From contig CM000435.1 in the NCBI GenBank assembly GCA_000165345.1, positions 1 to 64,000 of the forward strand: DNA of 64,000 nucleotides. Direction: 5' to 3'. Shown piece by piece: positions 25,118 to 64,000 of the stretch. Position numbers and translations under genes: made by a program. Positions within the stretch are counted from its first letter, which is position 1; every line of letters begins with the position of its first letter. A model generated the notes under the pieces. It had not been told where the DNA came from. It saw only the letters and a list, made by a program, of their open reading frames with translations, and made no database searches.

Positions 25118-26389
25118 TCAAATAATTTTCAACTTACCTTTTCTTACTCTGAAACCCCTGATCTCATCTTCAATATTGGATTCAATCTTGGGTAATGGAT
25201 TTGGTAAATATCTAAAGAATGATATTAATACAAGTAATCTTGCAATTTGTCTTGGCGACTCTTTTGTATACTTATGAATCTTTTCTTTAACTTCTTCCCA
25301 AGTTTGAGAAGGAAAACATGTCATTGCCACATCTTTTAGAATATTTACTGATCCATTTGGATTTTGAAGAATTTTTAAAAGTTCGTCAGTTTTTAATGGT
25401 TTTAAAGAATCCTTTTTAATTACATGATTTCTTAGCAAAATTTCAATAGTTAATATATCACGAAGTTGCATCATTGAAAGGGCTGGATCTTCTACAGTAA
25501 TTTCCATTATATCTTCGTCTTTTATTGCAAAGCTATAAATAATATCCAGAAATGAACAACCTAAACCTTTTCCTTGGTACTGAGGAAATATCAAAACTTG
25601 AGAAATTCTAATTCTAGATTTGGGAATTGAAAAAAATAAATATGTAGTAATTAAACCTAAAATGATAAGTGATTGTTCTCTTTTGACAGTAGGGAGCCAA
25701 ACTGCCCACCTATCTTCTTGATCAATAGAAGAAGCGGATTCAATATACCAATGGAGGAACCACTCAATTCTCCTGTGTAGAATTTGAAAGTTTTTAACAT
25801 CAGGATGAGGCTTAGAACTATTGGATTCCTTATTTAGGCAAGAAGTCAGATTTTCGGTTTCAGATAAATCTATTTTTCTTAAATCCACTTCCTCAATCCC
25901 TTCATCTCGAAGCCCTGCCTTAAATATGCCTGCTGATGTTCCAGGAACCCATAATAATGGAATCTTCAATCTTTCCATAAATTCTTCTTTGGAACAAAAT
26001 CCACCCTCGAGAGGAATGGTTTTTAACTGTTTAATAATATTTTCTATATAGTAGTTCTTGTCCTCCTCACTTAACTCAATATGCTCTTTAGACTTGCTTT
26101 TTATTGCAGTTAAATCTACTTCCACATATACATCAAACCAATTGCAAGAGAAATAAATGTGAATTAGCGTATTATAACCATCTAGCAACGCAATTTCCTC
26201 ATTGTGAAAAAAATGATGAGCATAATATGGAGCATAAGATCCTACTTTATTTTCAATAAAGTCGTTCAATGTCTCACATGGATGAAGTAAAATTTTATTC
26301 AATACATTATCAATTTTAATTGGAATGGATAGCTGTGAGTTAGGCTCTTCGTTGAGCTTTACTCGTTTATTAGGGTTTATATCATCCAT
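25118..26389 (-). CDS. HAT1: Histone acetyltransferase type B catalytic subunit (HAT1 family, GNAT fold)
   Basis: RISQVLIFPQYQGKGLGCSFLDIIY ... ITVEDPALSMMQLRD matches HAT1 acetyl-CoA-binding core (RISQMLILPPFQ.KGYG ... EDP); N-terminal HAT1-N-like region. Confidence 0.75.
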   Translation of the reverse strand: MDDINPNKRVKLNEEPNSQLSIPIKIDNVLNKILLHPCETLNDFIENKVGSYAPYYAHHFFHNEEIALLDGYNTLIHIYFSCNWFDVYVEVDLTAIKSKSKEHIELSEEDKNYYIENIIKQLKTIPLEGGFCSKEEFMERLKIPLLWVPGTSAGIFKAGLRDEGIEEVDLRKIDLSETENLTSCLNKESNSSKPHPDVKNFQILHRRIEWFLHWYIESASSIDQEDRWAVWLPTVKREQSLIILGLITTYLFFSIPKSRIRISQVLIFPQYQGKGLGCSFLDIIYSFAIKDEDIMEITVEDPALSMMQLRDILTIEILLRNHVIKKDSLKPLKTDELLKILQNPNGSVNILKDVAMTCFPSQTWEEVKEKIHKYTKESPRQIARLLVLISFFRYLPNPLPKIESNIEDEIRGFRVRKGKLKII

Positions 26390-29890: not shown

Positions 29891-32629
29891 TTATATACTA
29901 TTTGAATATCTTTGGCCAATGCATATTTGTGCAGCAGCAACAGCTTCTGATAAGTCTACAAAGCAATGAACAAGAGGAATAATATCATAGAATCCAGATC
30001 TGAGTAGAAAACTAGAGTTTGGATGAGAAAATGAAGCAAACCAAAGTTGTATATTAAGTTTCTTTGTCTTGTTGTTGAATCTTTGTAGGACCTGAAGCGC
30101 AGAATAGTCAATTTCATTAATCATGCAGGCGTCTATTATTATTATTCTTTCTACATGATTTTCATTAAGATCTTGTATAATTGTAGGAATTCTCTCTCCA
30201 AAATTAATGGAATTTGTAAAGTTAGGGAAATATTGACTCTTAGTTAGATACTCATCAATTGAATCTTCTTGGTAGTTCTTGTTTGAAATCCTTAAATCTT
30301 CGTCCAACCAAACCTCGACCATTTCTTCAAGGTTTTTAACAAACCTTTCAGCATTAATAAATGTTAAAGGACCTTCGAATCTTGCAATACGAACATATGG
30401 AAGCTGAACAGCTTGAGGAAATTTGTCCAAACTTTTAAATATTAAAGTACCTGGTAATTTACCTAAAATTTCAAATTTGGGCCTGTATAAAAATTTTATG
30501 AGATAAATAACTGAAGAAGTTAGGGCAAAAATAATTCCATATGTTATTCCTGCAGTAACTGTCCCAATAAATGCTATCATCCAGAAAATGGAATCAATGC
30601 TCCTCATTTTCAGGAGTTTTATGAAGTATTTGATGTTGACCATCCTTATCATTGCTTGAGAAATGATCGCTCCTAATACTGCCTCAGGTAAAAACCTTAT
30701 ATATTCAAGTAGAAACATTGCAACCAAAAGAACTCCCATTGAATATGCAATGTTATGAAGGGGGGATTTGACTCCAAGAGTAAAATTCAAATTTGTCCTT
30801 GCTAGAGATGCTGCGCCAGGAAGACAATTGAAGAAAGCCCCAACAATATTTATAACTCCAAGAACAAGTATTTCTGTTCCTACTGAAAAAAGAGATCTAG
30901 GCTCAATATGTTTTTTCTTTGAAGGTTGATAGTTTTTTATTATTGCCTCAGTCTCCTTTATTTTTTCTACATTGTTCTCGTCCAAAGATGAGTTTTCAAA
31001 GGAAAACTTGTGAAGTGTTTCTGAAACATTGCTTGAGCTATTAGTATTAAGCATAAAGCCCTGGCAGTCTTCATTCTCCGAGTCATGTGAGTGGGGTTTG
31101 CTATTTATTGTAGTTATTGGGTTTGGAATAGATGATTTTGAATCAAACCTAATGCTTAAAGAGACCCTTCGCTCTTTATCCCAAATAATAGAGGAAGATT
31201 TAGAAGAGGTTGGCGAAGCTAGCGACTGGAAGGAGGACGGAGAAAGACTCGAATTCAAATTATCTACTGAATCTAAATCTCCCTTTGAAATCTCCAAAGA
31301 AGATTGTGTGCATTTTCTTTGATCTGTTTCCGGGCTAGTCTTTGTTTCTGATATTACTTGCCCCGAAAACTGAAATGACGTTGAGACAGTATTTATATTT
31401 CTTTCTATATTTTGCTTTCTATCATTTATGAGCCTGGCTCCATCTTTTTCATTTTGGACATTCATTTCCTTCAAATTAGATTCACTTTCTTTAGGTGTTT
31501 CTGGCAATTTATGAGCTCTAATCTCCATGCTTTGAGCAGCAGAGTAATGGGTAAAAAATGAAATGAAGGTAAGAGGAAGAGCAGCTATCCATGCCCTTGC
31601 AAAAAATGGAAGAGAGCTGATTCCACTTGGCTGGGGAAGCGTACCTGGGGGTTGAGTCCAAATGATATTATTAGGAATGAGAAGGCTAGATTTGGGAATT
31701 TTGCCAATGATGGGAATATCAGGAGAAGCAAAAGCACTTGCAACGTTTGCCATTATTATTACTACCAACTGAGAAGGGAATGGGAAGTTTGTCTTGAAAA
31801 TGTTTTTGACCCACAAAATAGCTTCCAGAAAAAATATAGTAGAAATAGAGAAAATAGTAGCATGCCAGTTGGTATTTGACAGCTTATCCAATAATAAGAA
31901 AAATGCTTTAATCGGAACACAGTTAGTGCTTGGAGGCTCAATTGCAAGCATAAAAGGGAGTTCCTTTATAATAATCGAGCATGCGACTCCTGAAAGAAAT
32001 CCTTGTAATACAGAATCTGATAGAAAGTCAACAAAGTGAGCCAATCCAAAAATTCTTAAAAGACAGCAGGAAATTCCATGGAAGAAAATGACCACAGAAC
32101 AAACTTCTGATCTAACATCAAGAGGGGCTCGGTTCCCTATTAGAGTGTCAATCGCTGTGCCTGCAACGATAGATTCCACAGAATTTACCCCAATAGAGAT
32201 ATATAGAGAAGACCCAATGAATAAATAGATAATTGGTTGTAAAATTCCATTACAGAGACCCATAGATGGAACTACATTAGCTAAAGAAGAGTATGAGAGA
32301 CCCTGCGGAATAGAAAGCGCTGCCTCTGCAAGACCACAAAAAAAATCGCAAATTACATTTGACCAGGTCCATTTTACTTGCTTTAGATATTTTATTCCAA
32401 TTAAAGATTCATTCTGGAAAAATGAACGAATGGATTTGATAATAATTGATAAAAAACTTCTCCAACCACTTTTACTTCTTCTGTGAAATCTGTTGTGAAG
32501 CTTAAAGTCATTATTAATTTCCTCATTCCTATGTTGATAAAGCGTGAGGAATTCATCCCACTCTTTTGTTAAGCCACTCTTATGTTTAGTCTCTGTATCA
32601 TTTATTATTTTCTTATTATTCTCATCCAT
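29891..32629 (-). CDS. Sulfate permease / SLC26 (SulP) family anion transporter with C-terminal STAS-like region and large low-complexity insertion
   Basis: 912-aa ORF with ~10 TM helices; SLC26-type N-terminal core (GLSYSSLANV..., ...AGITYGIIFAL...) and STAS-like C-terminus. Confidence 0.7.
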   Translation of the reverse strand: MDENNKKIINDTETKHKSGLTKEWDEFLTLYQHRNEEINNDFKLHNRFHRRSKSGWRSFLSIIIKSIRSFFQNESLIGIKYLKQVKWTWSNVICDFFCGLAEAALSIPQGLSYSSLANVVPSMGLCNGILQPIIYLFIGSSLYISIGVNSVESIVAGTAIDTLIGNRAPLDVRSEVCSVVIFFHGISCCLLRIFGLAHFVDFLSDSVLQGFLSGVACSIIIKELPFMLAIEPPSTNCVPIKAFFLLLDKLSNTNWHATIFSISTIFFLEAILWVKNIFKTNFPFPSQLVVIIMANVASAFASPDIPIIGKIPKSSLLIPNNIIWTQPPGTLPQPSGISSLPFFARAWIAALPLTFISFFTHYSAAQSMEIRAHKLPETPKESESNLKEMNVQNEKDGARLINDRKQNIERNINTVSTSFQFSGQVISETKTSPETDQRKCTQSSLEISKGDLDSVDNLNSSLSPSSFQSLASPTSSKSSSIIWDKERRVSLSIRFDSKSSIPNPITTINSKPHSHDSENEDCQGFMLNTNSSSNVSETLHKFSFENSSLDENNVEKIKETEAIIKNYQPSKKKHIEPRSLFSVGTEILVLGVINIVGAFFNCLPGAASLARTNLNFTLGVKSPLHNIAYSMGVLLVAMFLLEYIRFLPEAVLGAIISQAMIRMVNIKYFIKLLKMRSIDSIFWMIAFIGTVTAGITYGIIFALTSSVIYLIKFLYRPKFEILGKLPGTLIFKSLDKFPQAVQLPYVRIARFEGPLTFINAERFVKNLEEMVEVWLDEDLRISNKNYQEDSIDEYLTKSQYFPNFTNSINFGERIPTIIQDLNENHVERIIIIDACMINEIDYSALQVLQRFNNKTKKLNIQLWFASFSHPNSSFLLRSGFYDIIPLVHCFVDLSEAVAAAQICIGQRYSNSI

Positions 32630-35118: not shown

Positions 35119-38100
35119 ATGAAATTAAGAATAGCAGCATTTAAGGTGCTGGTAGTAGTTAAGCTACTTTCGATTCTAGGTTTTGGGACTAATTATGGGC
35201 TTGTTAACGCAGATAAAAAAGTTAGTGTGAGCGAAATAGTATTTGAGAGCCCAATAGAAACTTTGGAATGGGCAGGTACGGACCATAATGTGGTTATTGC
35301 AAAGACGCAAAAAGGTCATGTCTACAGATCAACCAATAGAGGTAAGAACTGGAGAGATATCACTGATGTTTTTGCAAAGATGACCTCACACTCATCTTCT
35401 TCAAGTCATTCCAACCTAAATGGGTTTTCTGTTAAGTCAATTACTATAAATCCTGTCGACAAAAATGTCATATTGATAGTAGGCTCAAAGCATACCCATT
35501 TTATATCATCAAATGCAGGAGAGACTTTTAGAAGAATATCCCACTCAGGTACTATTCATACATGGATATTTCATCCAAACAAAGCCAAACTCGCTTTATT
35601 TTCTTCTTGGACTGAAGGATGTAACAAATCTTTTCTTCAAACCTTAAAGAAAAGTAGTTCGGCTGGAAATAAGTGTATACATCAATTATTTGTTACAAAA
35701 GATTTAGGTGCTACATATCATAAAGTTATTGACTATGTAGTTCAATTCCATTGGGATGGCAATAACAAATCAAACCAAAATAGGATTTTCTTTACTCACC
35801 ACAGAAAGAAACAGGGAGATCAACCTAGATATGGTGGTTGGATGAAGACCATAGATTTTTCTTATACTGACGATTTTGGTAGTCATATCGAGACTCCAGT
35901 TAAAGGAGGAAATAAATTCTTGGCGTCAAATGGCTATATCTTCGTTGCCAGGATACTTGACTACGAGAGACAAACTGTGTCACTACTTGTATCTACAAAC
36001 GATGCAAATTCTTTTACACAGGTTCAGCTACCGCATACATTGACAGAGAAAAGCTATACTATTTTGGATACTTCAGAAAAGACTGTAATGCTTCATGTTA
36101 ATCATGGAGAAGATTCTTTGAAGGGTACTGGTAATATTTATATAAGTAACTATTTGGGTACCAGGTTTGCTCTGTCTTTATTGAATAACGTTAGAACTGC
36201 AACAGGAGAGTGTGAATTTGATAGAGTTATGTCTTTAGAAGGAGTTTATATTGCTAATGTTAAGGATGATGAACTTGAAAATGACCTTGACCATATTTCT
36301 ACAACTTTACATGAATTTACAGAATCAGAGACAGAGGATGAGGATGTAGAAACTTTAAAAACCGAACATAAAACTAAAATAGGAAAAGTAGATCAGCCAG
36401 TCAGAACTGTAATTACTTTTGATAAGGGTGGTGAATGGAATTATTTAAAAGCTCCAACTATTGATAGTAGAGGAAATAGGATAAATTGTGACGAAAGTGA
36501 TGGATGCTATTTACATCTTCATGGTGTAAGCAATTATCAAAGCTTGGCTCCATTTTACTCTGTTGAGAATGCTGTTGGTATAATTCTTGGAACAGGCAAT
36601 GTAGGTAGCTATTTATCCTTTGACCATGATGATATCAATACCTACATGTCCAGAGATGGAGGTCTCACTTGGCAAGAAGTGCACAAAGGAGCTTTCATTT
36701 ACGAGCTCGGTGATTTTGGAGGTCTTATCGTAATGGCTAATGATCTTAAGCATACGAACCAAGTTATTTTCAGCTGGAATGAAGGTTTATCTTGGTATGA
36801 TTTTGAGCTAGGTAGCAAAACACTACAAGTTGATAACATTTTAATAGAGCCAAATAGCTCTTCTATGGAGTTTTTACTTTATGGTTCAAGGGGTAAATCT
36901 GGAGTCTTATACCATTTAGACTTTAATACTCTTGGACAAGTTCAATGCGTAGGAGCAACAACTCCAGATAGACCGGATTCTGATTATGAGACTTGGAGTC
37001 CATATGACGGAAGGAATTCGGAAAAGTGTATGTTGGGTAAACAACTTGTATACACGAGAAAGAAACAGACAGCAGAGTGTTACAATGGTCAAGACTTTAG
37101 AAGACCCGTGGAAAAGAAGCGTTGTGCATGTTCTGAAGAGGACTTCACATGTGAATTTGGGTTTTCCAGGCAAATTGGTAGTTTTGAATGTAGACCTGAA
37201 AGTCTTGATATTGTTTTTGACGATGTCAAGTTTGGGCAATGCACATCATCTGGAATATTTTATGTAACTGCTTATAGGAAGCTCCCTGGAGACGATTGTA
37301 TTGGTGGTTGGCTACCTCCACCAGTAGCAATACCATGCCCAAGCCACGCTCCCACAAGTTCTCATGCTAGAATTGTCCTGGTGATTGCATTATTTATTAT
37401 TATTTTCATGCTTAAACAGGGAATGTTTGGGGATTGGACTAGATTTGGTGAATTAGGATACGACGCATATAGAAATGTTCAGTATAAAGTATTAGGAGTG
37501 GCAAAAAGAAGGAGTTCTTCATTACAAGGAATTTTGAGTGCTATTTCTGCATATATTAACGGAGATTCATCCAAAGTTGTCTTTGGGTCATCAAATATAC
37601 CAGGGTCTCCCCCCGGTACGAAGAAAAATAACTATACAACTCTAAACAACTTTAATACAGACAACATGTTTATGGAGGATGATGAAGATGAAGACGACCA
37701 TGCTATTGGTAATATGACCAAAATATCTGGAAATATTAATAACATCAAAAGTAACAATTATAACAGTAGAATTGGTTCAGGGTCAAACCTCTCACAAAGG
37801 CAAAGATCAAACAGCAATAATTATATTTCTGCAGGCCAAGATAATGTATCAGTAGATCCAATTTTTGACGATCTTGATGTATTTGAGGAAGACTTGGATT
37901 CGCATGCAATTTTTAATCAAAACAATGGATTGGGTAATTTGAATCCTAACCACGATATTATATCGTCTGAGGCTCCTATCAGTTTTGATAATTTCAATCC
38001 AACAGAATTGGAAATCAATCTATCTTCAATTCCTAATACATCTTTCCCAAAGATCACTCCTCCACCAACAAACAACAATAAATCTAATATTGGAAACAAC

Positions 38101-38139
38101 TTTAATCAAGACAACTCCAGTGGAATTGAACTATTGTAG
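35119..38139 (+). CDS. Sortilin / VPS10-domain sorting receptor (type I membrane protein)
   Basis: Signal peptide; BNR/Asp-box motifs (YRSTNRGKNW, SRDGGLTWQEV, SWNEGLSWYDF), Cys-rich 10CC module, single TM (IVLVIALFIIIFML) and Asn-rich cytoplasmic tail. Confidence 0.8.
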   Translation: MKLRIAAFKVLVVVKLLSILGFGTNYGLVNADKKVSVSEIVFESPIETLEWAGTDHNVVIAKTQKGHVYRSTNRGKNWRDITDVFAKMTSHSSSSSHSNLNGFSVKSITINPVDKNVILIVGSKHTHFISSNAGETFRRISHSGTIHTWIFHPNKAKLALFSSWTEGCNKSFLQTLKKSSSAGNKCIHQLFVTKDLGATYHKVIDYVVQFHWDGNNKSNQNRIFFTHHRKKQGDQPRYGGWMKTIDFSYTDDFGSHIETPVKGGNKFLASNGYIFVARILDYERQTVSLLVSTNDANSFTQVQLPHTLTEKSYTILDTSEKTVMLHVNHGEDSLKGTGNIYISNYLGTRFALSLLNNVRTATGECEFDRVMSLEGVYIANVKDDELENDLDHISTTLHEFTESETEDEDVETLKTEHKTKIGKVDQPVRTVITFDKGGEWNYLKAPTIDSRGNRINCDESDGCYLHLHGVSNYQSLAPFYSVENAVGIILGTGNVGSYLSFDHDDINTYMSRDGGLTWQEVHKGAFIYELGDFGGLIVMANDLKHTNQVIFSWNEGLSWYDFELGSKTLQVDNILIEPNSSSMEFLLYGSRGKSGVLYHLDFNTLGQVQCVGATTPDRPDSDYETWSPYDGRNSEKCMLGKQLVYTRKKQTAECYNGQDFRRPVEKKRCACSEEDFTCEFGFSRQIGSFECRPESLDIVFDDVKFGQCTSSGIFYVTAYRKLPGDDCIGGWLPPPVAIPCPSHAPTSSHARIVLVIALFIIIFMLKQGMFGDWTRFGELGYDAYRNVQYKVLGVAKRRSSSLQGILSAISAYINGDSSKVVFGSSNIPGSPPGTKKNNYTTLNNFNTDNMFMEDDEDEDDHAIGNMTKISGNINNIKSNNYNSRIGSGSNLSQRQRSNSNNYISAGQDNVSVDPIFDDLDVFEEDLDSHAIFNQNNGLGNLNPNHDIISSEAPISFDNFNPTELEINLSSIPNTSFPKITPPPTNNNKSNIGNNFNQDNSSGIELL

Positions 38140-43046: not shown

Positions 43047-44843
43047 ATGCGTCCATCTCTACTTTTGGGGAGTTCTGTGAGAAGAAAAAATTGCATAAAA
43101 AACTACTTGGTATCCTCAGATACTGAAATTGAAGATGAAAATAATAACATAAATACTCCTGTAAAAAATCTAACTATAAAGTTAAAAGAGGAGCACTATT
43201 ATAGTGATAATTCAAACATTAATGAATGCTCCTCAAGACCATCAATAAGCTTAGCAACATCTGTTAGAAGAAAAGTGTATCACATAGACTCCAGCGAAGA
43301 TAGCTATACAGAAGACGTAAACTTAAGCTATTTAAACAGTAATCCAAGTACTTTTACATCTGATATACTGGAAAATCTCCATGAGTCCCCAACTCAGCCT
43401 TGTATTCACTATAAAAGTGAATTTGAGCCAAATAACAATCCCTCTTCTAATTACTCAAGTATTGGAAGTAGAAGGAGAAACTGTATATTTAGTAGCGAAG
43501 AAGAAGATATTATCCCGTTATCTTCGAGGCCTTCAATTAAATATCAGTCTTCAGTTAGAAGGAAAAACAATTCAAGAAAAATTTTTACAATAATTGATTC
43601 AGATTCTGAAGATGAGTTAAGCAATAATGCAGCAAGCAAAAGATCGTCTTTTTGTCTAGGCCCAGAACTAATCTGTGAGCCAAATATTCTCAACTGTACA
43701 CCAGAACAACACAATATCTGGAGGTCATTTGACTCTGATTTAGAAATAGATGAAACAAATGTTTCTATAGATACTCTACAAGAATTGGAGTGGAAAACAG
43801 CTATTTCATCTTCAGACTTTGAAGATGAAGAAGTGGAAAGAAAACATCTGACTGGTTATCAGTCTGAGGAAATTGAATATGAAGACAAAACTGGAGAATA
43901 TCAAAATACTCCCAGAATGGATGAAAAAGAAGTATTACCAGAAAAATATAGTTTATTTAGTGATGAAGATATAGAAGATCAAAAGTCTGATTTGGAGGAG
44001 ATCAAGGAAAATGTTAGCTCAAAAGATCTGAACTCTAATCAAGTGACAAACTTGACAAAAGAAATCCCCTTGAAAAATAAATCCGAAAAATTTGGAGCAT
44101 TCATAAGACAAAGATCATCAATTGCAAAATATTGGTACCAAAAGTTTAATAAGCAAGTTTTCCATAATAGGCTTCCAGAGGAAGTTCCAATTAAATGGAC
44201 AGGAAGGCTTCAAAGAACAGCAGCTCAAACACTTTTTATTACTAATATAGATGGTTCTAAAAGAGTGGTAATTAAGCTTTCAAAGTATGTTTTGGATTGT
44301 GAATTCAGATTAAAGAAAACACTGTTACATGAATGTTGTCATGTAGCTCAATTTTTATTAGATTCTTGTATTAGGCCTCCTCATGGACAAATATTTATGA
44401 AATGGGGAAAAGTAGCTACAAAAGTGTTTCCTGACTTAAAAGTTGAAATATACCATAATTATGAAATAATATACAAATACAGATATCAATGTTTAAGATG
44501 TTTTCAGATGTTTGGAAGACAAACCAAAATAAATGATGAAACCAAGATTGTTTGTTCAGTCTGTAATGGTACAGTAATATTTATTGGAAGAGGAACTTTA
44601 AGCAATAGTAGGAAGGAATTTCAAGTAAAAGCACAGAACCCTCCAAATACACAGAAGAGTAAATCCAACCCTTACTCTGAGTTTGTAAAGGAGAAGTTTG
44701 CAGAGTTCAAGAAGGATATTAGGGATGGCAGAACCCCCTCCAGAAGAGCTCCAAGCATAATGAAAGAAATTGCAAAGCTTTGGAAACAAAAAAAGTCTGA
44801 AGATTTGATTCAAGACTTCGAAAAGCTTTCCATAAACAATTAG
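43047..44843 (+). CDS. SprT-like zinc metalloprotease with C2C2 zinc finger and C-terminal HMG box, preceded by acidic Ser-rich disordered region with 3 SVRRK repeats (GCNA/ACRC-like architecture)
   Basis: HECCH (HExxH) in SprT-like fold; CLRC...CSVC; HMG-like NPYSEFVKEKFAEFKKDIRDGRTPSRRAPSIMKEIAKLWKQ. Confidence 0.65.
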   Translation: MRPSLLLGSSVRRKNCIKNYLVSSDTEIEDENNNINTPVKNLTIKLKEEHYYSDNSNINECSSRPSISLATSVRRKVYHIDSSEDSYTEDVNLSYLNSNPSTFTSDILENLHESPTQPCIHYKSEFEPNNNPSSNYSSIGSRRRNCIFSSEEEDIIPLSSRPSIKYQSSVRRKNNSRKIFTIIDSDSEDELSNNAASKRSSFCLGPELICEPNILNCTPEQHNIWRSFDSDLEIDETNVSIDTLQELEWKTAISSSDFEDEEVERKHLTGYQSEEIEYEDKTGEYQNTPRMDEKEVLPEKYSLFSDEDIEDQKSDLEEIKENVSSKDLNSNQVTNLTKEIPLKNKSEKFGAFIRQRSSIAKYWYQKFNKQVFHNRLPEEVPIKWTGRLQRTAAQTLFITNIDGSKRVVIKLSKYVLDCEFRLKKTLLHECCHVAQFLLDSCIRPPHGQIFMKWGKVATKVFPDLKVEIYHNYEIIYKYRYQCLRCFQMFGRQTKINDETKIVCSVCNGTVIFIGRGTLSNSRKEFQVKAQNPPNTQKSKSNPYSEFVKEKFAEFKKDIRDGRTPSRRAPSIMKEIAKLWKQKKSEDLIQDFEKLSINN

Positions 44844-56706: not shown

Positions 56707-58965
56707 TTATTTAGGTATTTTAAAAACTACTGGCTTGGATGCCTTTGCATTTTGAATCAAACTTGAGCACTTTGATGTACCGACAATTCTTTCAAGAGCT
56801 AAGGAATTTTGCCAATGAAAGAGAGTAACTGCTAGTGGAGCAGTAGATTTTGGATTACTTTTATCTGGGCCTTGTGAAAAGTTAATGCTTTGAATACAAT
56901 CTAGATAAATACTCGGGTAGATTGGAGGGCCACAGAATATCACCTTTGTTGCACCTTTAAGAAGGTATCTCCTAAAGAATAAAAACCTCTCTGTAGTTAT
57001 TAAAATAGGGAGCTCTCCTTTATAAAATGCAAATCTATTTCTAGAAAGTGAAGCGTTTGATGTTGACTCATTACATGAAGCAAATATTGCGTTTTGTTGA
57101 AGAAGGTATTTTCTAATCCTCAGATATATTACATAATTTGAAAGTACAATTAATACTCTCTCTGTTTTCCCATCTAAAGCTGCCAAAATATCAGGATAAA
57201 GAGTTGAACCAAAGTAATTAAGCAAACACTCTTCTGGCGTCCCTGTGTCACCTGTCTTAATAAACATCTGTTGAATTCCCTCCACTAACTTCGGCGCAAT
57301 ATACAATGGTAAATTCTTCTCCATGTATCCTATTATCTTCTCTAGTGGTTTCCATAATCTTATAAACCCTCTTCTATTTTGTGTATGGTTTCTAAATAAT
57401 GAATTAATATCTTCTATTCTACATGCAGAAATCATAATTGTTTGTCTGAATTCCTTTGAATTCCCATCTAAAAATGCTTGGTATACTCTCCTAATATCGC
57501 AGTTTCCTAGTGATTTTTTAGGAAGTTTGTTCATCACTTTAAATACATCAAGTATATGATCCCAGTTTTGCATAAAAATTATGTCAGCTCCAAAAACTAA
57601 GCAAACTTCGATACTTGAACAGAACGAAATATCTGAGCCTTTTCCTCCTTCACTCATCCCCATCACTCTTCTAATACCTAATGGAGAAGCAATAATAATA
57701 TCAGAGTTATCAAAAGAACTGTATAGGTTCATTCCAGATTTGGTAAGCTGAATGCCAAGCTTAAATTCGTCATCATGGTCTTTACCTTCAAAAAGATATC
57801 TATAAAGCTCATCATTTCTGCCTAATTTACTTTCTAATACATTTGTTTTGCTCTGATTTTCTACGCTTTCAGCCTTTTGATCCTTCTTAATTTTCTCGTT
57901 ACCTTCATTGGTGGCTTCCTCATTCTCCGAAGAATTATCAGGAAGCCCAAATTCTTCTTCAAACCTGTCATATCCTCTTAATACTTTTCCATGGGGTAAA
58001 ATTGTAACTAAAGTATCTACAAGTTTCTTAGCAACTCCTTTGAATGGGCACAAAATTAAAACTCTGCATCTATTGAAACCTTGATCTCTGAATCTATCAT
58101 CTCCTAAATTATCAATATTAGAATTCACCTTATCCTTAATGGCTTCTTGCAATTTCGAGTTATTATTCATTACAAGCTGTCTGGAGTTATATATATGCCT
58201 ACTAATATGTAGCATGCAAAGTGACATTGCCCAAGGAGAAGTAATGGCTTTTAAATTCGAATATTCTACATCAATGTAGCCATTAACAATCCCATAAAAA
58301 GTATTTAACTCATCCAATTCATGAGATTCTAGAATTTCAAAAGATTCTATATGCTTTCCCCAATTTTGCCTAAATTTTGAATCCATTTGAAAATTAGCCA
58401 GATTAAGTTTTCCTTTCTTAAATTTTGGAGTTTCTAATATTAGCTTTTGAATGTCTCTAATCCTATCAGACATTTGGGAACTCTCTAGTTTGAATGGACT
58501 GAAACCAGGAAGATTTACTATCTCCTTCTCAGTTTTCTCTTTAGATTCTGCAGTCACTTTGCAATTAATCTCAGGAATTTGTTGCATTCCTTCATTGGTA
58601 TAGTCAGCAAAATATTCACCATGTTTTTTAGTAAAAGTTATCTCGGTTCCAACATTTCCTTCTAATGCTCCATTATGAGTATCAATCGAATTAGTGACCT
58701 CTTCAGTGCCATTACTTTCAGTTTCCTTTTTCTTTGAAGATTCCTTTAAATTGTTTTGGAAGTCATTTCGAACAAATTGCATCCACTTAGAATATACATC
58801 CGAAGAATTTGAAATCATCCCATTTATTTCTCCATCTAAGTCGCTTAGAGTACTATCAGAATCAAATTTTCTCGTATCAGTCCTTATTTTTTTGGAAGTA
58901 GTACCAATTGGTCTAGAATTGCCATTTTTAGATTTCAGACTCCGACGTTTCGATCTGAGAGTCAT
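56707..58965 (-). CDS. UTP25: U3 snoRNP / SSU-processome protein UTP25 (digestive-organ expansion factor, DUF1253)
   Basis: RDQGFNRCRVLILCPFKGVAKKLV...; ERFLFFRRYLLKGATKVIFCGPPIYPSIY matches conserved Utp25 C-terminal helicase-like fold. Confidence 0.8.
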   Translation of the reverse strand: MTLRSKRRSLKSKNGNSRPIGTTSKKIRTDTRKFDSDSTLSDLDGEINGMISNSSDVYSKWMQFVRNDFQNNLKESSKKKETESNGTEEVTNSIDTHNGALEGNVGTEITFTKKHGEYFADYTNEGMQQIPEINCKVTAESKEKTEKEIVNLPGFSPFKLESSQMSDRIRDIQKLILETPKFKKGKLNLANFQMDSKFRQNWGKHIESFEILESHELDELNTFYGIVNGYIDVEYSNLKAITSPWAMSLCMLHISRHIYNSRQLVMNNNSKLQEAIKDKVNSNIDNLGDDRFRDQGFNRCRVLILCPFKGVAKKLVDTLVTILPHGKVLRGYDRFEEEFGLPDNSSENEEATNEGNEKIKKDQKAESVENQSKTNVLESKLGRNDELYRYLFEGKDHDDEFKLGIQLTKSGMNLYSSFDNSDIIIASPLGIRRVMGMSEGGKGSDISFCSSIEVCLVFGADIIFMQNWDHILDVFKVMNKLPKKSLGNCDIRRVYQAFLDGNSKEFRQTIMISACRIEDINSLFRNHTQNRRGFIRLWKPLEKIIGYMEKNLPLYIAPKLVEGIQQMFIKTGDTGTPEECLLNYFGSTLYPDILAALDGKTERVLIVLSNYVIYLRIRKYLLQQNAIFASCNESTSNASLSRNRFAFYKGELPILITTERFLFFRRYLLKGATKVIFCGPPIYPSIYLDCIQSINFSQGPDKSNPKSTAPLAVTLFHWQNSLALERIVGTSKCSSLIQNAKASKPVVFKIPK

Positions 58966-59147: not shown

Positions 59148-60099
59148 TTAACTTGTAAGGTAAGTAACAAAAGCTGCAACAGAATAAGAAACAGTGCCTG
59201 GGATAAGTCCACTAACAAGCATTGTAATTGCAGATCTAATTGGAGGCATATTGCAGAACTTTCCTTTGACATATCCCAAAACATAAAGTGTAACAGCACA
59301 GCAAATACATGCCGTAGAGAAAGAAAGTGCCTGGGAAAACTCGTTGAGTAGATCAGAAAGAGAAAATATGTATTTAAATGAAACAAAGGAAAGCATTGGT
59401 ATGAGTCCAAATAGTGCGAAGCTGAAAAACATGAAAGTAGCAGTTTTTAGTGGTGAGGGTTGAGAGGAGTCACCTTGCTCAATTATCAATCCCAATTCTT
59501 CAAACATCATGTTTGATATAAAAAAATCCTTGTATTTAAAAGTTAAATCTACCATTTTCTGTGCATCTTCTTCAGAAAACCCATATTTTAACTGATATAA
59601 ATTGTACATTTCACTTATTTCTTCCTCTGGGCAATTTTCAACTTCCCATTTTTCTCTTTCTTGTTCAGAATGAACGAACTCCTTTTCAGCTTTAGAACTA
59701 ACATACTCTCCAACTGACATAGCAAATGCATCTGCTAGTAGACTACCCATGCAAATTGTAAAAAGCTGAATAGTTGTAAAACCAGCAGCAACGCAGCCAG
59801 AAACAAGTGAAAATATGGTGATGATCCCATCTAGACCACCAAAAACAATGACCTTAAGTAGTTCACTCTGAGTTCCAAGGTGTTCCTCTTTGTGAGGATA
59901 TCTTTTGTGTACTAAACTAAATAAAACATATTTTTGTTTGAAGAATTCATTATTAATTAGCCGTGTTTCCAAACAAATAAAATTATTAAACTTACGCTGA
60001 CCTCTCGATATCACGCTCCCTATAAGCTTCTCTTGCTTCCTCCAATCTTTCACTTCGTTTAAATATGCTATTATAAAATCCTTTAACTATAGTATTCAT
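59148..60099 (-). CDS. VIT1: Vacuolar iron transporter (VIT1/CCC1 family), 2 exons: join(59996..60099, 59148..59916), 79-nt intron
   Basis: VFGGLDGIITIFSLVSGCVAAG...ADAFAMSVGEYVSSKAEKEF (VIT signature); upstream MNTIVKGFYNSIFKRSERLEEAREAYRERDIERS|GTAAGT ... TTATTTAG joins in frame to ...LVHKRYPHKEEHLG. Confidence 0.8.
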
Positions 60100-60926
60100 C
60101 TTTTAGGGAGTACAGACTAACTAATCCTCAATTTTGAGAATAATAAAACCAAAATATATTTTTGATACCAAAAATAATTAAATAAAGATACTTTTTTCTT
60201 TATATTCTCTTTAGTTGACTAAAAGTTGTTTATTTAATTCCTAATTGAAATTAATTGTTTTCTTTAAAATTGGAAAATAAAAATATAATATTTGAGCGCG
60301 CCAAAAATAAACTTTTCTCCAAGTCAAGCATATACAAGAAAGTATAGAATAAAAGAAATTTAAGAAAAAAATTGATTCAAATGAAAACTATTTAAATTGC
60401 CTTACCAAAATTTACCTTAATGCAACAAAATTTTAGTTGGTTTACCTAATAAGAAAAATCCAATTTTTACATATTTTTTCAATTATATTACTAAACGCAG
60501 CGCCTAAATATTACTCGATACCGGCATTGCATGCAAAATACTGTCACTAAATGCCCCACATTTTAAATGTAAATCTTAGAAAAATGTCATCAATTAGCAT
60601 GCAAAAAAAAAAATATTTAAATCTTGGAAAAAAGAGAGGCAAATGCTTGAATTTAATGATTAAATTGATATATTTTGAGAATTCAAGTTAAAGGTTTATT
60701 TTAATTATTACTATTAATATTATTATTACTAATATTACATATTGGAATCCAAGTTTAGTCAAACAAGAAAATCTGCTAAGTTTCTTTCAACTAAAAAATT
60801 ATTACTTAATAAGATAGATTCAATTGGAGAATATAAAAGAAAATAGAAGAAAAGAGAATAAGAATAAATAATCAAAGGTGTGTATCAAGTATAAATAAAT
60901 TATCTCAGAGATACCTAAGACTTGGA

Positions 60927-63900
60927 ATGATGAACAATATATTTGGGGAGCCAAGAAATGAATTTTGGTATAGGATTAACGAACAAGCTGCAATTAGAAG
61001 AAACCATCCAGAAAATGATCTTCTCCAAATTTCAGATTCATACAATACCCCAGGAATTAAAAATAGGTTTGAAGGACTAATTTCAAGCTACTACCAGGAA
61101 AATAATGGTAGTAAAAACCTTTTAATGAATACAGGATACCATAAGAATGTTACAGATAAGAACTCGACTATGGATAAGAAAAATATTGGAAGTACCTCTA
61201 TTATTAGATTTCACTCGCACTTTTTAAATATGATGAAAAAGGGATTAATATGTTTTTCATGTGGTAGTATTCTGAGATCAAACTTTGGAAGCAAAATTAA
61301 CTCCGATATCAACTCAATCCAAACATGTCCCAGTAATTCTGATGTCACAGGATTCACATGCGTTGTTGAAACATGTGGAAGATCAATCTGCAATCCTTGT
61401 CTTCAGTTTTCTAGGGTTCATGATGTATCTCTTTTTAACTCCGAGCTAAGTACCTGCATAATATGTGAATATCAAAATGAGTATAATCAGAGAAACCCAA
61501 TCAACCCGAGAGCTCCAATTGAGTGGCATTGGACATTTCATACTCCAGAGGATTTAACTTTTCTTAGAAAGGTCAGAAGTGGATTGATCAATGGAAATGG
61601 GTTACATATTGAACTTAGTGGAAAACGCCAGGGATGTTGGAGAAGAAGAAAAGATGGAAAAAGAAAACACTTCAGTTTTAAACAACATGGTGGCTTTTTT
61701 GAGAGTCGAGCTGTTGCCCTGGAATTCAAAGCTGTTCAAATAAAGGCAGGAGGCCAAGATTACCAATCAGCTCCACTAATGATTACTGCTATTGGAGAAA
61801 GCTACTCGGAAATTGTGCCTAGAAGAATTCATAGGGGAAACCAGGAACTACATAATCACCAAAGACTCATCCTAAGCAGTATTAATGATGGATCTTGTGC
61901 AATTTGCTTTCAAAAACAAACCAATCTTTGTCAAAATGCAAGTACAAACACCACAATTGAATCTAGATTTTCCAGTTGCGTTGCATGTGGAAGATTTTTC
62001 TGCCACTTATGTATCTTGTATATCCGAAGCAGCAATCCATGTAGTCCAATAGCTGCTCATTTCCTAAGTGAAAAACTTATTTGTGCTTTGTGTCAACACT
62101 TGAGTGTTCAGCCAACTGACAAGTTTGCTCAGTTTATCCACGACTTTTGTTCTCTTTTACCATCAAATACTCCCCTAATCAAATTTGACAAGTATAATAT
62201 GAAATGGAAGACGCCTTATGGTTCTGTCAGTGTTGTAGAATCTGGAGGGATCTTGGAATCCAGAAGAGAGGCCTACTGCCAGCTTGAAACTGGACAAAGC
62301 TTAGAAGTTACATGCTCATATGATAGGAATATATTTTATGGCGAGATTGGGAACAAGCTTGGTTATTATACACAATTCGCAAAAAATGGAATGTTAAGAG
62401 TCTATGGCCCATTTGAGACTTATGATGAAGCTGGAAGAAGGTGGGATTTGGATGCTCTCAAATACTATGGGGCAGAGAAAGCAATGAGAAAGGCATTCTT
62501 TCCAAAACTTTTGACCTGGCTTTCTCTCCCTCAAACTTTACAAAGATACTTCCTTGCTCCTTGGATTGTATGGTCAATGGATAAAGACGAAAGTTGTCAG
62601 AAATCCCAAAAAAAAGTTGGACTTACAAATAATCCTATCACCAAAACATACGATGTTATAATCATTGGAGCTGGAGTTTCTGGTCTCAAATCTGCAGAAG
62701 CCCTACTTAACAAAGGACTCAGTGTTCTTGTGCTAGAAGCTCAAAATATTCCTTTTGGGCGAATTTCCAGTTACAGCCAATGGACAAATCATAAAAGAAG
62801 ACTTTCCAGTGAAATTTGCTTTTATAGAGAAAAAAGAGATACTAGGGAGAGCTCCAGAGAAGCTGATAGGAAAAAGAATAATGACGAAAATGCGGAAGAA
62901 CTGGTTAGCCAACTTTCCGAGGAAACAGTTTCCATAGCAAATGAACTCATCCGGCTTTCTCTCGAGTTACTTGAAGAAGTTGTGATTGACATGTTTCATC
63001 CTCTTTCAACAGTTCTTGAGCCTCCAATCAAAGAATTTATGTGTAAAAGTGGAAATGATTACTTTGAAAGAGTGAATCCAGCTAAATTGGTCCTTCAGAG
63101 AATTAAGGAATTTGGAGAAACTGTCAACTGGAGGTGGATTCTTATTAACTACTGTCTTCCACTTTCCTTGAAAAGGTTAAATATTAAGAATCTCTCCAGT
63201 TTCTCAAAAAAGTACATAGAAAAGGCAACATGTGGTGACTATGGAGAGAATCTATTCAAAAATATCGAACAGTTCTACTGGGAAAGACTTCCAAGATTTG
63301 TAGGATTTGAAGAACTCCCATGGAGGGAGTACTGGTGTTACCCCAAAAACAACCTTGAAAGACTTAAATTCTCTGCAAGCATATTCCATCATATCCAACT
63401 GCAGAAAGAATCTATTATAGAAAGAAGCTTTGATGAGTGTGATCTTATTGACTGTGAACTCCAAAAGTTAATCCAAAACAACGAAATACTTAATAATACT
63501 CATTTTAATAGTCCAGTTTCTGATATACTATACAATAACGAGACAGATCAGGTTAACGTTAGAATTAGTAATGGAACATGGTTCAGTTCTTCATGCGTTA
63601 TTTGTACTCTTCCTATTGGAGTTTTAAAAAAGAGTGTCCAGTCATCTGAGAATAATCCCGGGAATTCTAATAAAGTACAAGGAGCTCAATGCCAACTTTC
63701 TAATATATCTTCATTTAAGAACTCCATCAAATTTATCCCACCATTGCCTTATGAAACTATTAGGTCCATTAAGCTATTGGAAATGAACAGCTACACTGAG
63801 TTATTTTTAAAACTTAATATTAATCCAATTCTTTCTAACTCAGGGTCTACTCCAAGTACAAATTGCAACGCAATCTCTAGTTCTCCATCATCTATCATCA

Positions 63901-64000
63901 CAACCTCAAACTCCGTCAAATGCGAAAAGGAGTCGGATATATACTTTTCGAGACTTGCAGATAAAATACACCATCTAGACCATCCATGCATAACTATGTA
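60927..64000 (+). CDS. Flavin-dependent amine oxidase (LSD/KDM1-like histone demethylase or polyamine oxidase) with N-terminal Cys-rich zinc fingers; 5'-complete, 3' end beyond window
   Basis: Open frame from ATG 60927 to window end (>1020 codons, no stop; absent from ORF track because it has no stop in the window); DVIIIGAGVSGLKSAEALLNKGLSVLVLEA (FAD Rossmann GxGxxG); VICTLPIGVLKK...IKFIPPLPYETIRSIKLLEMNSYTELFLKL parallels LSD1 VLCTLPLGVLK...VQFVPPLPEWK...; two C-x2-C/C-x2-C/H clusters N-terminally. Confidence 0.75.
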   Translation, partial: MMNNIFGEPRNEFWYRINEQAAIRRNHPENDLLQISDSYNTPGIKNRFEGLISSYYQENNGSKNLLMNTGYHKNVTDKNSTMDKKNIGSTSIIRFHSHFLNMMKKGLICFSCGSILRSNFGSKINSDINSIQTCPSNSDVTGFTCVVETCGRSICNPCLQFSRVHDVSLFNSELSTCIICEYQNEYNQRNPINPRAPIEWHWTFHTPEDLTFLRKVRSGLINGNGLHIELSGKRQGCWRRRKDGKRKHFSFKQHGGFFESRAVALEFKAVQIKAGGQDYQSAPLMITAIGESYSEIVPRRIHRGNQELHNHQRLILSSINDGSCAICFQKQTNLCQNASTNTTIESRFSSCVACGRFFCHLCILYIRSSNPCSPIAAHFLSEKLICALCQHLSVQPTDKFAQFIHDFCSLLPSNTPLIKFDKYNMKWKTPYGSVSVVESGGILESRREAYCQLETGQSLEVTCSYDRNIFYGEIGNKLGYYTQFAKNGMLRVYGPFETYDEAGRRWDLDALKYYGAEKAMRKAFFPKLLTWLSLPQTLQRYFLAPWIVWSMDKDESCQKSQKKVGLTNNPITKTYDVIIIGAGVSGLKSAEALLNKGLSVLVLEAQNIPFGRISSYSQWTNHKRRLSSEICFYREKRDTRESSREADRKKNNDENAEELVSQLSEETVSIANELIRLSLELLEEVVIDMFHPLSTVLEPPIKEFMCKSGNDYFERVNPAKLVLQRIKEFGETVNWRWILINYCLPLSLKRLNIKNLSSFSKKYIEKATCGDYGENLFKNIEQFYWERLPRFVGFEELPWREYWCYPKNNLERLKFSASIFHHIQLQKESIIERSFDECDLIDCELQKLIQNNEILNNTHFNSPVSDILYNNETDQVNVRISNGTWFSSSCVICTLPIGVLKKSVQSSENNPGNSNKVQGAQCQLSNISSFKNSIKFIPPLPYETIRSIKLLEMNSYTELFLKLNINPILSNSGSTPSTNCNAISSSPSSIITTSNSVKCEKESDIYFSRLADKIHHLDHPCITM

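Follow-up and report, generated by a model that had tools for sequence, protein, structure and literature searches.

The function of the catalytic residues of the demethylase LSD1 and of the polyamine oxidases (PAOs) is known from single exchanges: the K661A exchange abolishes peptide demethylation by LSD1, the K300M exchange slows flavin reduction in maize PAO (ZmPAO) 1,400-fold, and Tyr761 is likewise pivotal (PMC3184146), while Lys300 is strictly conserved in PAOs (PMC7576179). LSD1 also has scaffold roles which are independent of catalysis (PMC11377572). In Cryptosporidium, histone methylation is measurable, and C. parvum contains SET methyltransferases and no JmjC proteins, the latter being the only demethylases the authors searched for; the absence of JmjC was said to raise questions on the dynamics of demethylation or on "alternative demethylating enzymes" (PMC9487757; PMC12246861). 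An LSD-type enzyme in Cryptosporidium was considered in neither of these two papers, and no paper on such an enzyme was found in a literature search. The locus described here, cgd7_270 of C. parvum, starts close to the end of the analyzed window, which comprises the 64,000 nucleotides from position 1 to 64,000 on the forward strand of contig CM000435.1 (assembly GCA_000165345.1), and codes for a flavin amine oxidase domain preceded by a long N-terminal region of cysteine-rich and basic modules. As judged from its sequence, the product of cgd7_270 is not a conventional LSD demethylase, since both hallmark catalytic residues are replaced and the SWIRM and Tower domains are absent; the motifs binding flavin adenine dinucleotide (FAD) are retained.

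The translation of positions 60927-64000 is free of stops over 1,024 codons from the ATG at 60927 to the window edge (60927-63998, plus strand), and because of an in-frame stop at 60834-60836 this is the first ATG of the frame. A first-pass annotation of this DNA had noticed the frame by eye as an open reading frame (ORF) of more than 1020 codons without a stop to the window end, and had attributed its omission by the ORF finder to the lack of that stop. Both statements hold: no overlooked in-frame stop is present in the 1,024 codons, and the program does not list ORFs running off the window, so that the list contains no plus-strand ORF across 60927-64000. The peptide strings quoted in that annotation are all found in the translation (DVIIIGAGVSGLKSAEALLNKGLSVLVLEA at amino acids 576-605, VICTLPIGVLKK at 891-902, and FIPPLPYETIRSIKLL at 936-951). 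The window translation represents C. parvum Iowa II protein XP_628220.1/EAK90521.1 (P0010), the product of cgd7_270, without mismatches over 1,024 amino acids; the full protein consists of 1,165 amino acids, about 141 C-terminal residues lying past the window end. Colinear orthologues of 1,055-1,174 amino acids with 45-98% identity are found in C. hominis, C. meleagridis, C. tyzzeri, C. ubiquitum, C. canis, C. bovis, C. serpentis, and the chipmunk genotype. Long ORFs are dense in this window of about 30% GC; the cgd7_270 ORF is real, far beyond chance, and already annotated in public records, and its apparent omission results from the edge of the window. The databases label the protein either "hypothetical" or "amine oxidase domain-containing," and in the main-text literature it was found only as a "conserved hypothetical" entry among the ultraviolet (UV)-induced oocyst genes in the table of a UV-stress microarray study. 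The reading frame and the features of its C-terminal half are located as follows.

60927-63998, plus strand: open reading frame, amino acids 1-1024 of the 1,165-amino-acid cgd7_270 protein (no stop; identity to XP_628220.1)
62493-62606, plus strand: conserved linker, amino acids 523-560, FFPKLLTWLSLPQTLQRYFLAPWIVWS (71% identity to C. serpentis; hhalign probability against SWIRM below 1%)
62640-63998, plus strand: flavin amine oxidase domain, amino acids 572-1024 of 572-1165 (Pfam Amino_oxidase)
62649-62774, plus strand: FAD dinucleotide-binding beta-alpha-beta element, amino acids 575-616, with GAGVSG, VLVLEAQ (Glu604), and GR (Arg612) (NAD_binding_8, 33 bits; alignment)
63045-63095, plus strand: position equivalent to the LSD1 Tower, 17 amino acids, KSGNDYFERVNPAKLVL (alignment columns of animal LSD1s)
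63798-63800, plus strand: GAG codon of Glu958, which occupies the site of the catalytic Lys (K661 in LSD1, K300 in maize PAO), motif ..LLEMNSYTELFLKL (MAFFT alignment)
63822-63935, plus strand: Ser/Thr-rich low-complexity insert, amino acids 966-1003, directly after the active-site strand (orthologue alignment)

The assignment of the C-terminal half as an amine oxidase with an FAD dinucleotide-binding motif, as proposed in the first-pass annotation, is borne out by the Pfam profile PF01593 (Amino_oxidase), which yields 42.3 bits for the part inside the window and 79.1 bits for the full-length protein (cut-off 19.8). All FAD-binding elements are kept (GAGVSG, VLVLEAQ, GR, VICTLPIGVLKK, and LYFAGDGT..GFGSIQGALLSAKR), and the signature set GxGxxG, LEA-Glu, GR, and FAG[DE]...GA is complete; the C-terminal FAD motif LYFAGDGT..GFGSIQGALLSAKR and a further motif, GSIPIH, are located past the window end. 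Searching the PDB with the orthologue profile gave the polyamine oxidase FMS1 as best match (3.8e-12), followed by LSD1 (4e-12), LSD2 (3e-11), and spermine oxidase (4e-11). An AlphaFold model of amino acids 459-1164, calculated from 42 sequences, reached a mean predicted local distance difference test (pLDDT) score of 61 overall and 84-94 in the FAD core, and the corresponding Foldseek searches returned LSD1, FMS1, nicotine oxidases, SMOX, and LSD2 at about 1e-16 to 1e-15. Hidden Markov models (HMMs) of three subgroups, which were built from distant homologues and whose groups were ascertained with the same profile, scored the Cryptosporidium oxidases with 122-138 bits for SWIRM-less oxidases of about 450 amino acids (top of the three groups), 98-114 bits for the PAO/SMOX type, and 77-87 bits for the SWIRM-containing LSD type (lowest). 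The closest relative outside of Cryptosporidium, P0017, matches LSD2 best (4.5e-62), then LSD1 and then PAO, and a naming search with NCBIfam gave only generic matches to the Rossmann region for the oxidase and its nearest relatives. Because it is not separated from polyamine, nicotine, or monoamine oxidases by sequence and fold searches, the domain is placed by its sequence in the broad LSD/PAO clade and no finer. The Ser/Thr-rich insert is present in C. parvum, C. hominis, C. ubiquitum, C. canis, the chipmunk genotype, and the orthologues P0003 and P0006, and is absent from C. bovis and C. serpentis.

As judged from alignments, the active site differs from those of the described relatives at positions known to be important. 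In the MAFFT alignment, the motif G.G..NKV.L.F contains the Lys in 31 of 34 homologues, while all eight Cryptosporidium sequences contain Glu in its place (..NSYTELFLKL), and the three HMMER subgroup models agree with this exchange, aligning "nKv" to "YTE" with high posterior values. The Tyr of the aromatic cage is part of a G-[SA]-Y motif in each of the 34 homologues and corresponds to Ile in the GSIPIH motif of all Cryptosporidium orthologues, as seen past the window in orthologue P0001. The residue numbers K661 and Y761 used here follow human KDM1A. The acidic H3-tail patch of LSD, "WDQDDDFEF," aligns to "WERLPR-FVGFEE," although this part of the alignment is less certain because the region is flanked by lineage-specific inserts. 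The features of the PAO type appear to be altered as well: the strictly conserved Lys (ZmPAO Lys300) is replaced by Glu958, and the positions of the aromatic sandwich residues Phe403 and Tyr439 of ZmPAO, as matched by alignment, seem to be occupied by Ile (GSIPIH) and Ser (GFGSIQGA). The segment ending on FLKL, which had been described as parallel to LSD1, thus exists as quoted, but carries Glu958 at the position equivalent to K661, and the counterpart of Tyr761 is Ile.

The additional domains of LSD enzymes were not recovered either. No match to SWIRM (PF04433) was obtained at E<=1 with the whole protein or at E<=10 with segments, and when amino acids 400-575 were compared by hhalign with the SWIRM regions of 18 LSD homologues, the probability remained below 1%. 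The conserved linker was considered as a candidate for this domain, as it holds the SWIRM position of LSD proteins, yet was rejected at the same hhalign probability. An insertion of about 300 amino acids with a helical stretch had been suggested to form a Tower-like domain, but it is made up of the usual helical lobe for the substrate and of several inserts of 6-33 amino acids specific to the lineage; the animal LSD1s P0025 and P0029 insert about 100 amino acids (the Tower) where cgd7_270 has 17, and the longest helix predicted by AlphaFold in the candidate region comprises 26 amino acids (at moderate to low pLDDT), which led to rejection of the Tower-like reading. A Pfam match to zf-CW was not found in cgd7_270, and the supposed LSD2-like finger arrangement dissolves into modules containing only Cys ligands in a C4C4 pattern instead of the C4H2C2 plus CW pair. 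From the initial view of an LSD/KDM1-like candidate demethylase, the oxidase fold and the FAD motifs therefore remain, whereas SWIRM, Tower, zf-CW, K661, and Y761 do not.

The presence of cysteine clusters upstream of the oxidase, interpreted as N-terminal zinc fingers, was recognized correctly in the first-pass annotation, which overlooked the repeated organization of these fingers and the AP2-like domain behind them. The N-terminal half is composed of the following elements.

61251-61466, plus strand: Cys module A, amino acids 109-180, eight-Cys finger of the C4C4 cross-brace type, C-x2-C...C-x4-C-x4-C-x2-C...C-x2-C (pattern)
61512-61736, plus strand: block 1, amino acids 196-270, with an "EWHW" motif, a helix, and a basic block, GLHIEL..RQGCWRRRKDGKRKHFSFKQHGGFFESR (profile matches)
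61896-62093, plus strand: Cys module B, amino acids 324-389, second C4C4 finger, C-x2-C...C-x2-C-G-R-x-F-C-x2-C...C-x2-C (pattern)
62124-62291, plus strand: block 2, amino acids 400-455, homologous to block 1 and completing the second copy of finger plus block (hhalign)
62313-62492, plus strand: block 3, amino acids 463-522, divergent AP2-like, IFYGE..GYYTQF..LRVYGPFETYDEAGRRWDLDALKYYG (profile similarity to AP2)

Pfam recognizes nothing significant in amino acids 1-560. The Cys pattern of module A is conserved in the orthologues as well as in P0061-64 and P0075, its C-terminal part (about amino acids 144-194) is modeled with pLDDT values of 70-83, and it matches PHD_NSD weakly in Pfam (E 1.8); module B is modeled with pLDDT values of about 70-80 and shows weak matches to FYVE, C1_4, and RING (E 1.7-8.8). 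Blocks 1 and 2 are homologous to one another, with an hhalign probability of 93% (E 2.9e-7) and a score of 37.8 which was reached by none of 200 column shuffles (10.1 +/- 2.3), and only to one another, as no Pfam or PDB matches were obtained for either. An interpretation of these two blocks as ApiAP2-like was discarded, the hhalign comparison with AP2 giving E-values of 0.29 and 0.49. A profile of amino acids 95-562 retrieved 17 matches from 1.84 billion representative proteins. Among those outside of the orthologues, P0061-P0073 and P0075 show an eight-Cys finger with the consensus C-x2-C-x(9-34)-C-x(2-4)-C-x4-C-x2-C-x(17-23)-C-x2-C, followed by "[EDTA][YF]Q..WHW.F," a helix, and a basic block with the consensus "GLFLEI..RQ.CWRRR..RKH[FY]SFKQ.GG.FE.R"; all eight matches of this finger-and-block type that were scanned with Pfam came out blank. 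P0061, a protein of the gregarine Lankesteria metandrocarpae, and P0062 also contain two copies of the unit without any oxidase domain, P0062 stopping directly after the second copy and P0061 continuing for about 250 low-complexity residues without a Pfam match. Among the proteins retrieved in these searches, the fusion of the zinc finger and AP2-like modules to an oxidase is therefore confined to Cryptosporidium. When block 1 was used as profile in a homologue search, a single fragment, P0067, was obtained, whose contig ends just past the gene. An AlphaFold model of the N-terminal 468 amino acids based on nine orthologues reached a pLDDT of only 45, and Foldseek found nothing significant for it, the best match being the RING finger of RING1B (E 1.9). 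In terms of sequence, the combination of finger, WHW motif, and basic block looks like a composite module blank in Pfam, apparently an undescribed domain family, and such a unit is not contained in the literature searched.

Block 3 is probably a divergent domain of the AP2 fold. The profile of amino acids 95-562 matches P0074, a protein from a grass in which Pfam recognizes seven AP2 domains, by way of block 3, and entire AP2 domains are aligned colinearly; the E-value of 1.5e-4 sums up weak matches to near-identical repeats, and block 3 was therefore tested by other means. Against verified AP2 repeats, hhalign returned an E-value of 7.5e-5 at a probability of 62%, and the score of 26.5 compares with 10.1 +/- 2.2 for shuffled profiles (maximum 20.7; 0/200 at the real score) and with 9.4 for the reversed control. 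The only significant match of block 3 in the PDB is the AP2/ERF factor WRI1 (E 6e-4), with both of its AP2 domains, and a beta-beta-beta-alpha order of secondary structure was predicted in both AlphaFold runs, with pLDDT values of 25-56. This assignment is of moderate strength only, and three observations count against it. Pfam AP2 (PF00847) matched neither the segment nor the blocks of five orthologues at E<=10. The best Pfam match to block 3 is DUF4170 with 19.3 bits, which is below the cut-off of 25. Finally, the Arg-rich DNA-contact positions of strands beta1 and beta2 are not conserved ("F-R-G-V-R-R-R..GKYVAEI" versus "F-Y-G-E-I-G-N..G-YYTQF"), although the loss of these Arg residues does not exclude DNA binding, since the contact patterns of ApiAP2 proteins differ from those of plants. 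The DUF4170 match itself, which concerns a bacterial family, is located at amino acids 489-514 (62391-62468) in four of five orthologues and covers the strand-helix motif "GPFxxYxEAxxxW" that resembles AP2. The paper on the ApiAP2 family of C. parvum mentions no cgd7 gene, and none appeared in the accessible part of the ApiAP2 table of a 2025 review.

A comparison with C. serpentis, the most distant orthologue, shows that the best conserved parts of the protein are block 3 (73% identity), the linker (71%), and block 1 (70%), followed by the parts of the oxidase (37-55%) and the fingers (20-38%). In RNA sequencing data of sorted cells (Tandel et al., 2019, supplementary file 4), cgd7_270 has mean values of 6.41 log2 counts per million in asexual stages, 9.32 in females in vitro, and 9.04 in females in vivo, and the log2 fold change of 2.90 corresponds to an about 7.5-fold increase in female gametes. 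The gene is part of an "oxidoreductases" filter in the analysis code of that study (Tandel et al., 2019), and the main text of the sexual-stage transcriptome names amine oxidases among the female-expressed protein modifiers which build or modify the oocyst wall, adding that a signal peptide is predicted for most wall genes. Hydrophobic segments resembling a signal peptide or transmembrane helix were not detected in cgd7_270, the maximum hydropathy over 15 amino acids at the N-terminus being -0.39, whereas strongly basic stretches are seen directly in the sequence. A hypothetical epigenetic switching via chromatin remodeling during female development has been put forward in a 2026 review which names no players (PMC13657310).

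The reading tentatively favored here, which is possible rather than assured, regards cgd7_270 as a chromatin-targeted flavoprotein whose oxidase domain, impaired or non-canonical, is chiefly a scaffold or a ligand-binding "pseudo-demethylase." In its favor are the module architecture with its repeats, the AP2-like block 3, the retained FAD motifs and fold, the exchanges in the active site, the conservation of block 1, block 3, and the linker above that of the oxidase, the female-enriched expression, and the absence of a hydrophobic leader or transmembrane segment. The zinc-binding and basic modules and the AP2-like domain would recruit the protein to chromatin or partner proteins, presumably in the nucleus of the macrogamont or zygote, where the oxidase domain would still bind FAD, but may be impaired or non-canonical in catalysis because both hallmark catalytic residues are replaced; in that case its main role might be that of a recruited scaffold, similar to what LSD1 does independently of catalysis. 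Several points weigh against this reading. The conclusions on the active site are drawn from alignments, and both structure models are of low confidence outside of the FAD core. Moreover, 3 of the 34 homologues also lack the catalytic Lys, K661A LSD1 keeps its activity on nucleosomes (PMC11377572), and intact FAD motifs together with a remodeled pocket that is invariant in the genus could equally indicate a working enzyme of altered chemistry. Such an enzyme, i.e. an active, but atypical demethylase of lysines in histones or other proteins, guided to its loci by the zinc and AP2-like modules and employing a Glu-water-N5 chemistry, appears rather doubtful as an explanation, but would supply an activity otherwise lacking in JmjC-less Cryptosporidium. 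It would agree with the occurrence of LSD1 and LSD2 among the top sequence and fold matches, with LSD2 as best match of the nearest outside relative P0017 (4.5e-62), with the intact FAD motifs, with the presence of SET methyltransferases and absence of JmjC in C. parvum (PMC9487757; PMC12246861), with the nucleosome activity of K661A LSD1 (PMC11377572), and with expression in female gametes, the stage of the hypothesized epigenetic switching (PMC13657310). On the other hand, SWIRM and Tower are absent, Lys is exchanged for Glu, Tyr761 for Ile, and the acidic H3-tail patch is apparently replaced, and the HMMs of the LSD type score lowest of the three subgroups. The most far-reaching form of this proposal, in which cgd7_270 would be the sole lysine demethylase of a JmjC-less eukaryote, targeting itself by its own AP2-like and zinc modules instead of by SWIRM, Tower, and CoREST, carrying Glu at the flavin N5, and resetting histone methylation in female gametes or zygotes, is considered unlikely.

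The remaining possibilities carry less weight than the favored pseudo-demethylase, and a part of the probability is assigned to none of these readings. PAO activity has been reported from extracts of C. parvum, and to our knowledge no gene has been assigned to it. A function of cgd7_270 as a PAO in the back-conversion of spermine and spermidine is nevertheless very unlikely: FMS1 is the best profile match in the PDB (3.8e-12), and the HMMs of the PAO/SMOX type score better than those of the LSD type (about 105 versus about 82 bits), but a metabolic enzyme would leave the 560 amino acids of zinc finger and AP2-like modules unexplained, and these N-terminal modules are better conserved than the oxidase itself. 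The female-enriched expression and the listing in the "oxidoreductases" filter of the authors' code might also suggest an oxidoreductase of the female stage which cross-links or modifies proteins of the oocyst wall; this appears highly improbable, as the protein contains no segment resembling a signal peptide or transmembrane helix, although the majority of wall genes are predicted to encode a signal peptide, as its zinc finger, basic, and AP2-like modules suggest the nucleus, and as the catalytic residues are lost. Hardly credible at all is a canonical orthologue of LSD1 or LSD2 with a Tower-like insertion and LSD2-like zinc fingers, even if LSD1 is among the nominal top matches and the N-terminal Cys clusters combined with the absence of a long Tower superficially recall LSD2, because beyond the generic oxidase fold none of SWIRM, zf-CW, Tower, K661, and Y761 was recovered, and the acidic patch is apparently altered too.

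The locus is of moderate interest because it bears on the removal of histone methylation in a parasite devoid of JmjC enzymes, for which cgd7_270 is an obvious candidate. Should the protein be active, it would represent an enzyme of the LSD type which brings its own targeting domains and whose active site is without precedent; in the opposite case, it would rank as a chromatin factor of the "pseudo-demethylase" kind, and demethylation would still have to be explained. Either way, it contains a Pfam-blank unit of C4C4 finger and WHW/basic block which is shared with a gregarine and absent from the literature searched, and an AP2-like domain which is missing from the paper cataloguing the ApiAP2 proteins and was not seen in the accessible part of a second survey.

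Upstream of cgd7_270, the window contains one further feature.

60054-60926, no strand assigned: AT-rich intergenic region common to cgd7_270 and the divergent VIT1-family gene at 59148-60053 on the minus strand (sequence)

This region contains the palindromic motif TGCATGCA (60528-60535), a GCATGCA motif (60597-60603), and an E2F-like motif TTTGGCGC on the minus strand (60298-60305), the latter being nearer to the VIT1-family gene. Over the whole window, the promoter-type motifs GCATGCA and TTTGGCGC occur 15 times (4.5 expected) and 7 times (0.6 expected), respectively, values reached in 0 of 100 shuffles each. Further genes code for a calcium-dependent protein kinase with Pkinase domain and EF hands (21516-23957), a histone acetyltransferase of the HAT1 type (25118-26389), a sulfate permease with STAS domain (29891-32629), a sortilin/Vps10 protein (35119-38139), a SprT-like protease (43047-44843), UTP25 (56707-58965), and the VIT1-family transporter (59148-60053). 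These neighbors are ordinary eukaryotic genes without a functional link to the findings on cgd7_270, and no ApiAP2 gene is present within the 64-kb window. Three long ORFs, at 13964-21388 (plus strand, 2,474 amino acids), 6844-9270 (minus strand, 808 amino acids), and 10277-12607 (plus strand, 776 amino acids), show no Pfam match at E<=1e-4, and the segment 4001-6000 has the lowest GC content (0.227) and the strongest GC skew (-0.43) of the window.

A view on the known systems shows that each of them shares only a part of cgd7_270. Human KDM1B/LSD2 (PDB 4fwe, 4gu0) contains a pair of C4H2C2 and CW fingers and a SWIRM domain and has kept the catalytic Lys and Tyr, whereas cgd7_270 contains two all-Cys C4C4 modules, each with a "WHW"/basic block, an AP2-like domain at the place of SWIRM, and exchanges of Lys to Glu and Tyr to Ile. 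Compared to human KDM1A/LSD1 (PDB 7xw8, 2v1d), SWIRM, K661, and Y761 are missing, 17 amino acids stand in for the Tower of about 100, and the acidic patch WDQDDD appears to be changed to WERLPR. The PAOs, such as yeast Fms1, maize PAO, and human SMOX/PAOX, have the same fold and reach scores equal to or above those of LSD, but are stand-alone enzymes of about 450-550 amino acids in which Lys300 is strictly conserved and an aromatic sandwich is present (PMC7576179), while cgd7_270 has 560 additional N-terminal residues and is devoid of those catalytic residues. The SWIRM-less "LSD-like" oxidases of about 450 amino acids (P0017-P0021 and others) form the top-scoring subgroup (122-138 bits, E 4e-15) and share the absence of SWIRM and Tower with cgd7_270; in contrast to it, they keep the Lys of the "NK" motif and the Tyr of GSYS and contain neither the N-terminal modules nor the inserts of Cryptosporidium. 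With the AP2/ERF and ApiAP2 domains (PF00847; WRI1, PDB 7wq5), block 3 is colinear over the whole domain of 55-57 amino acids, with the strongest similarity in beta3 and the helix ("LGtFdTaeEAarAYDlAAlkyyG" versus "YGPFETYDEAGRRWDLDALKYYG"), but it stays below the Pfam AP2 threshold, contains "YGEIGN" instead of "RGVRRR," and is fused to an oxidase. The closest counterparts of the N-terminal region are found in P0061-P0064, which share the unit of C4C4 finger, WHW, and "GLFLEI..CWRRR..KHYSFKQHGGFFE" at E-values of 1e-21 to 8e-45. Although these proteins are devoid of the AP2-like block 3 and of the amine oxidase domain, P0061 and P0062 carry the unit twice, in the same order as cgd7_270.

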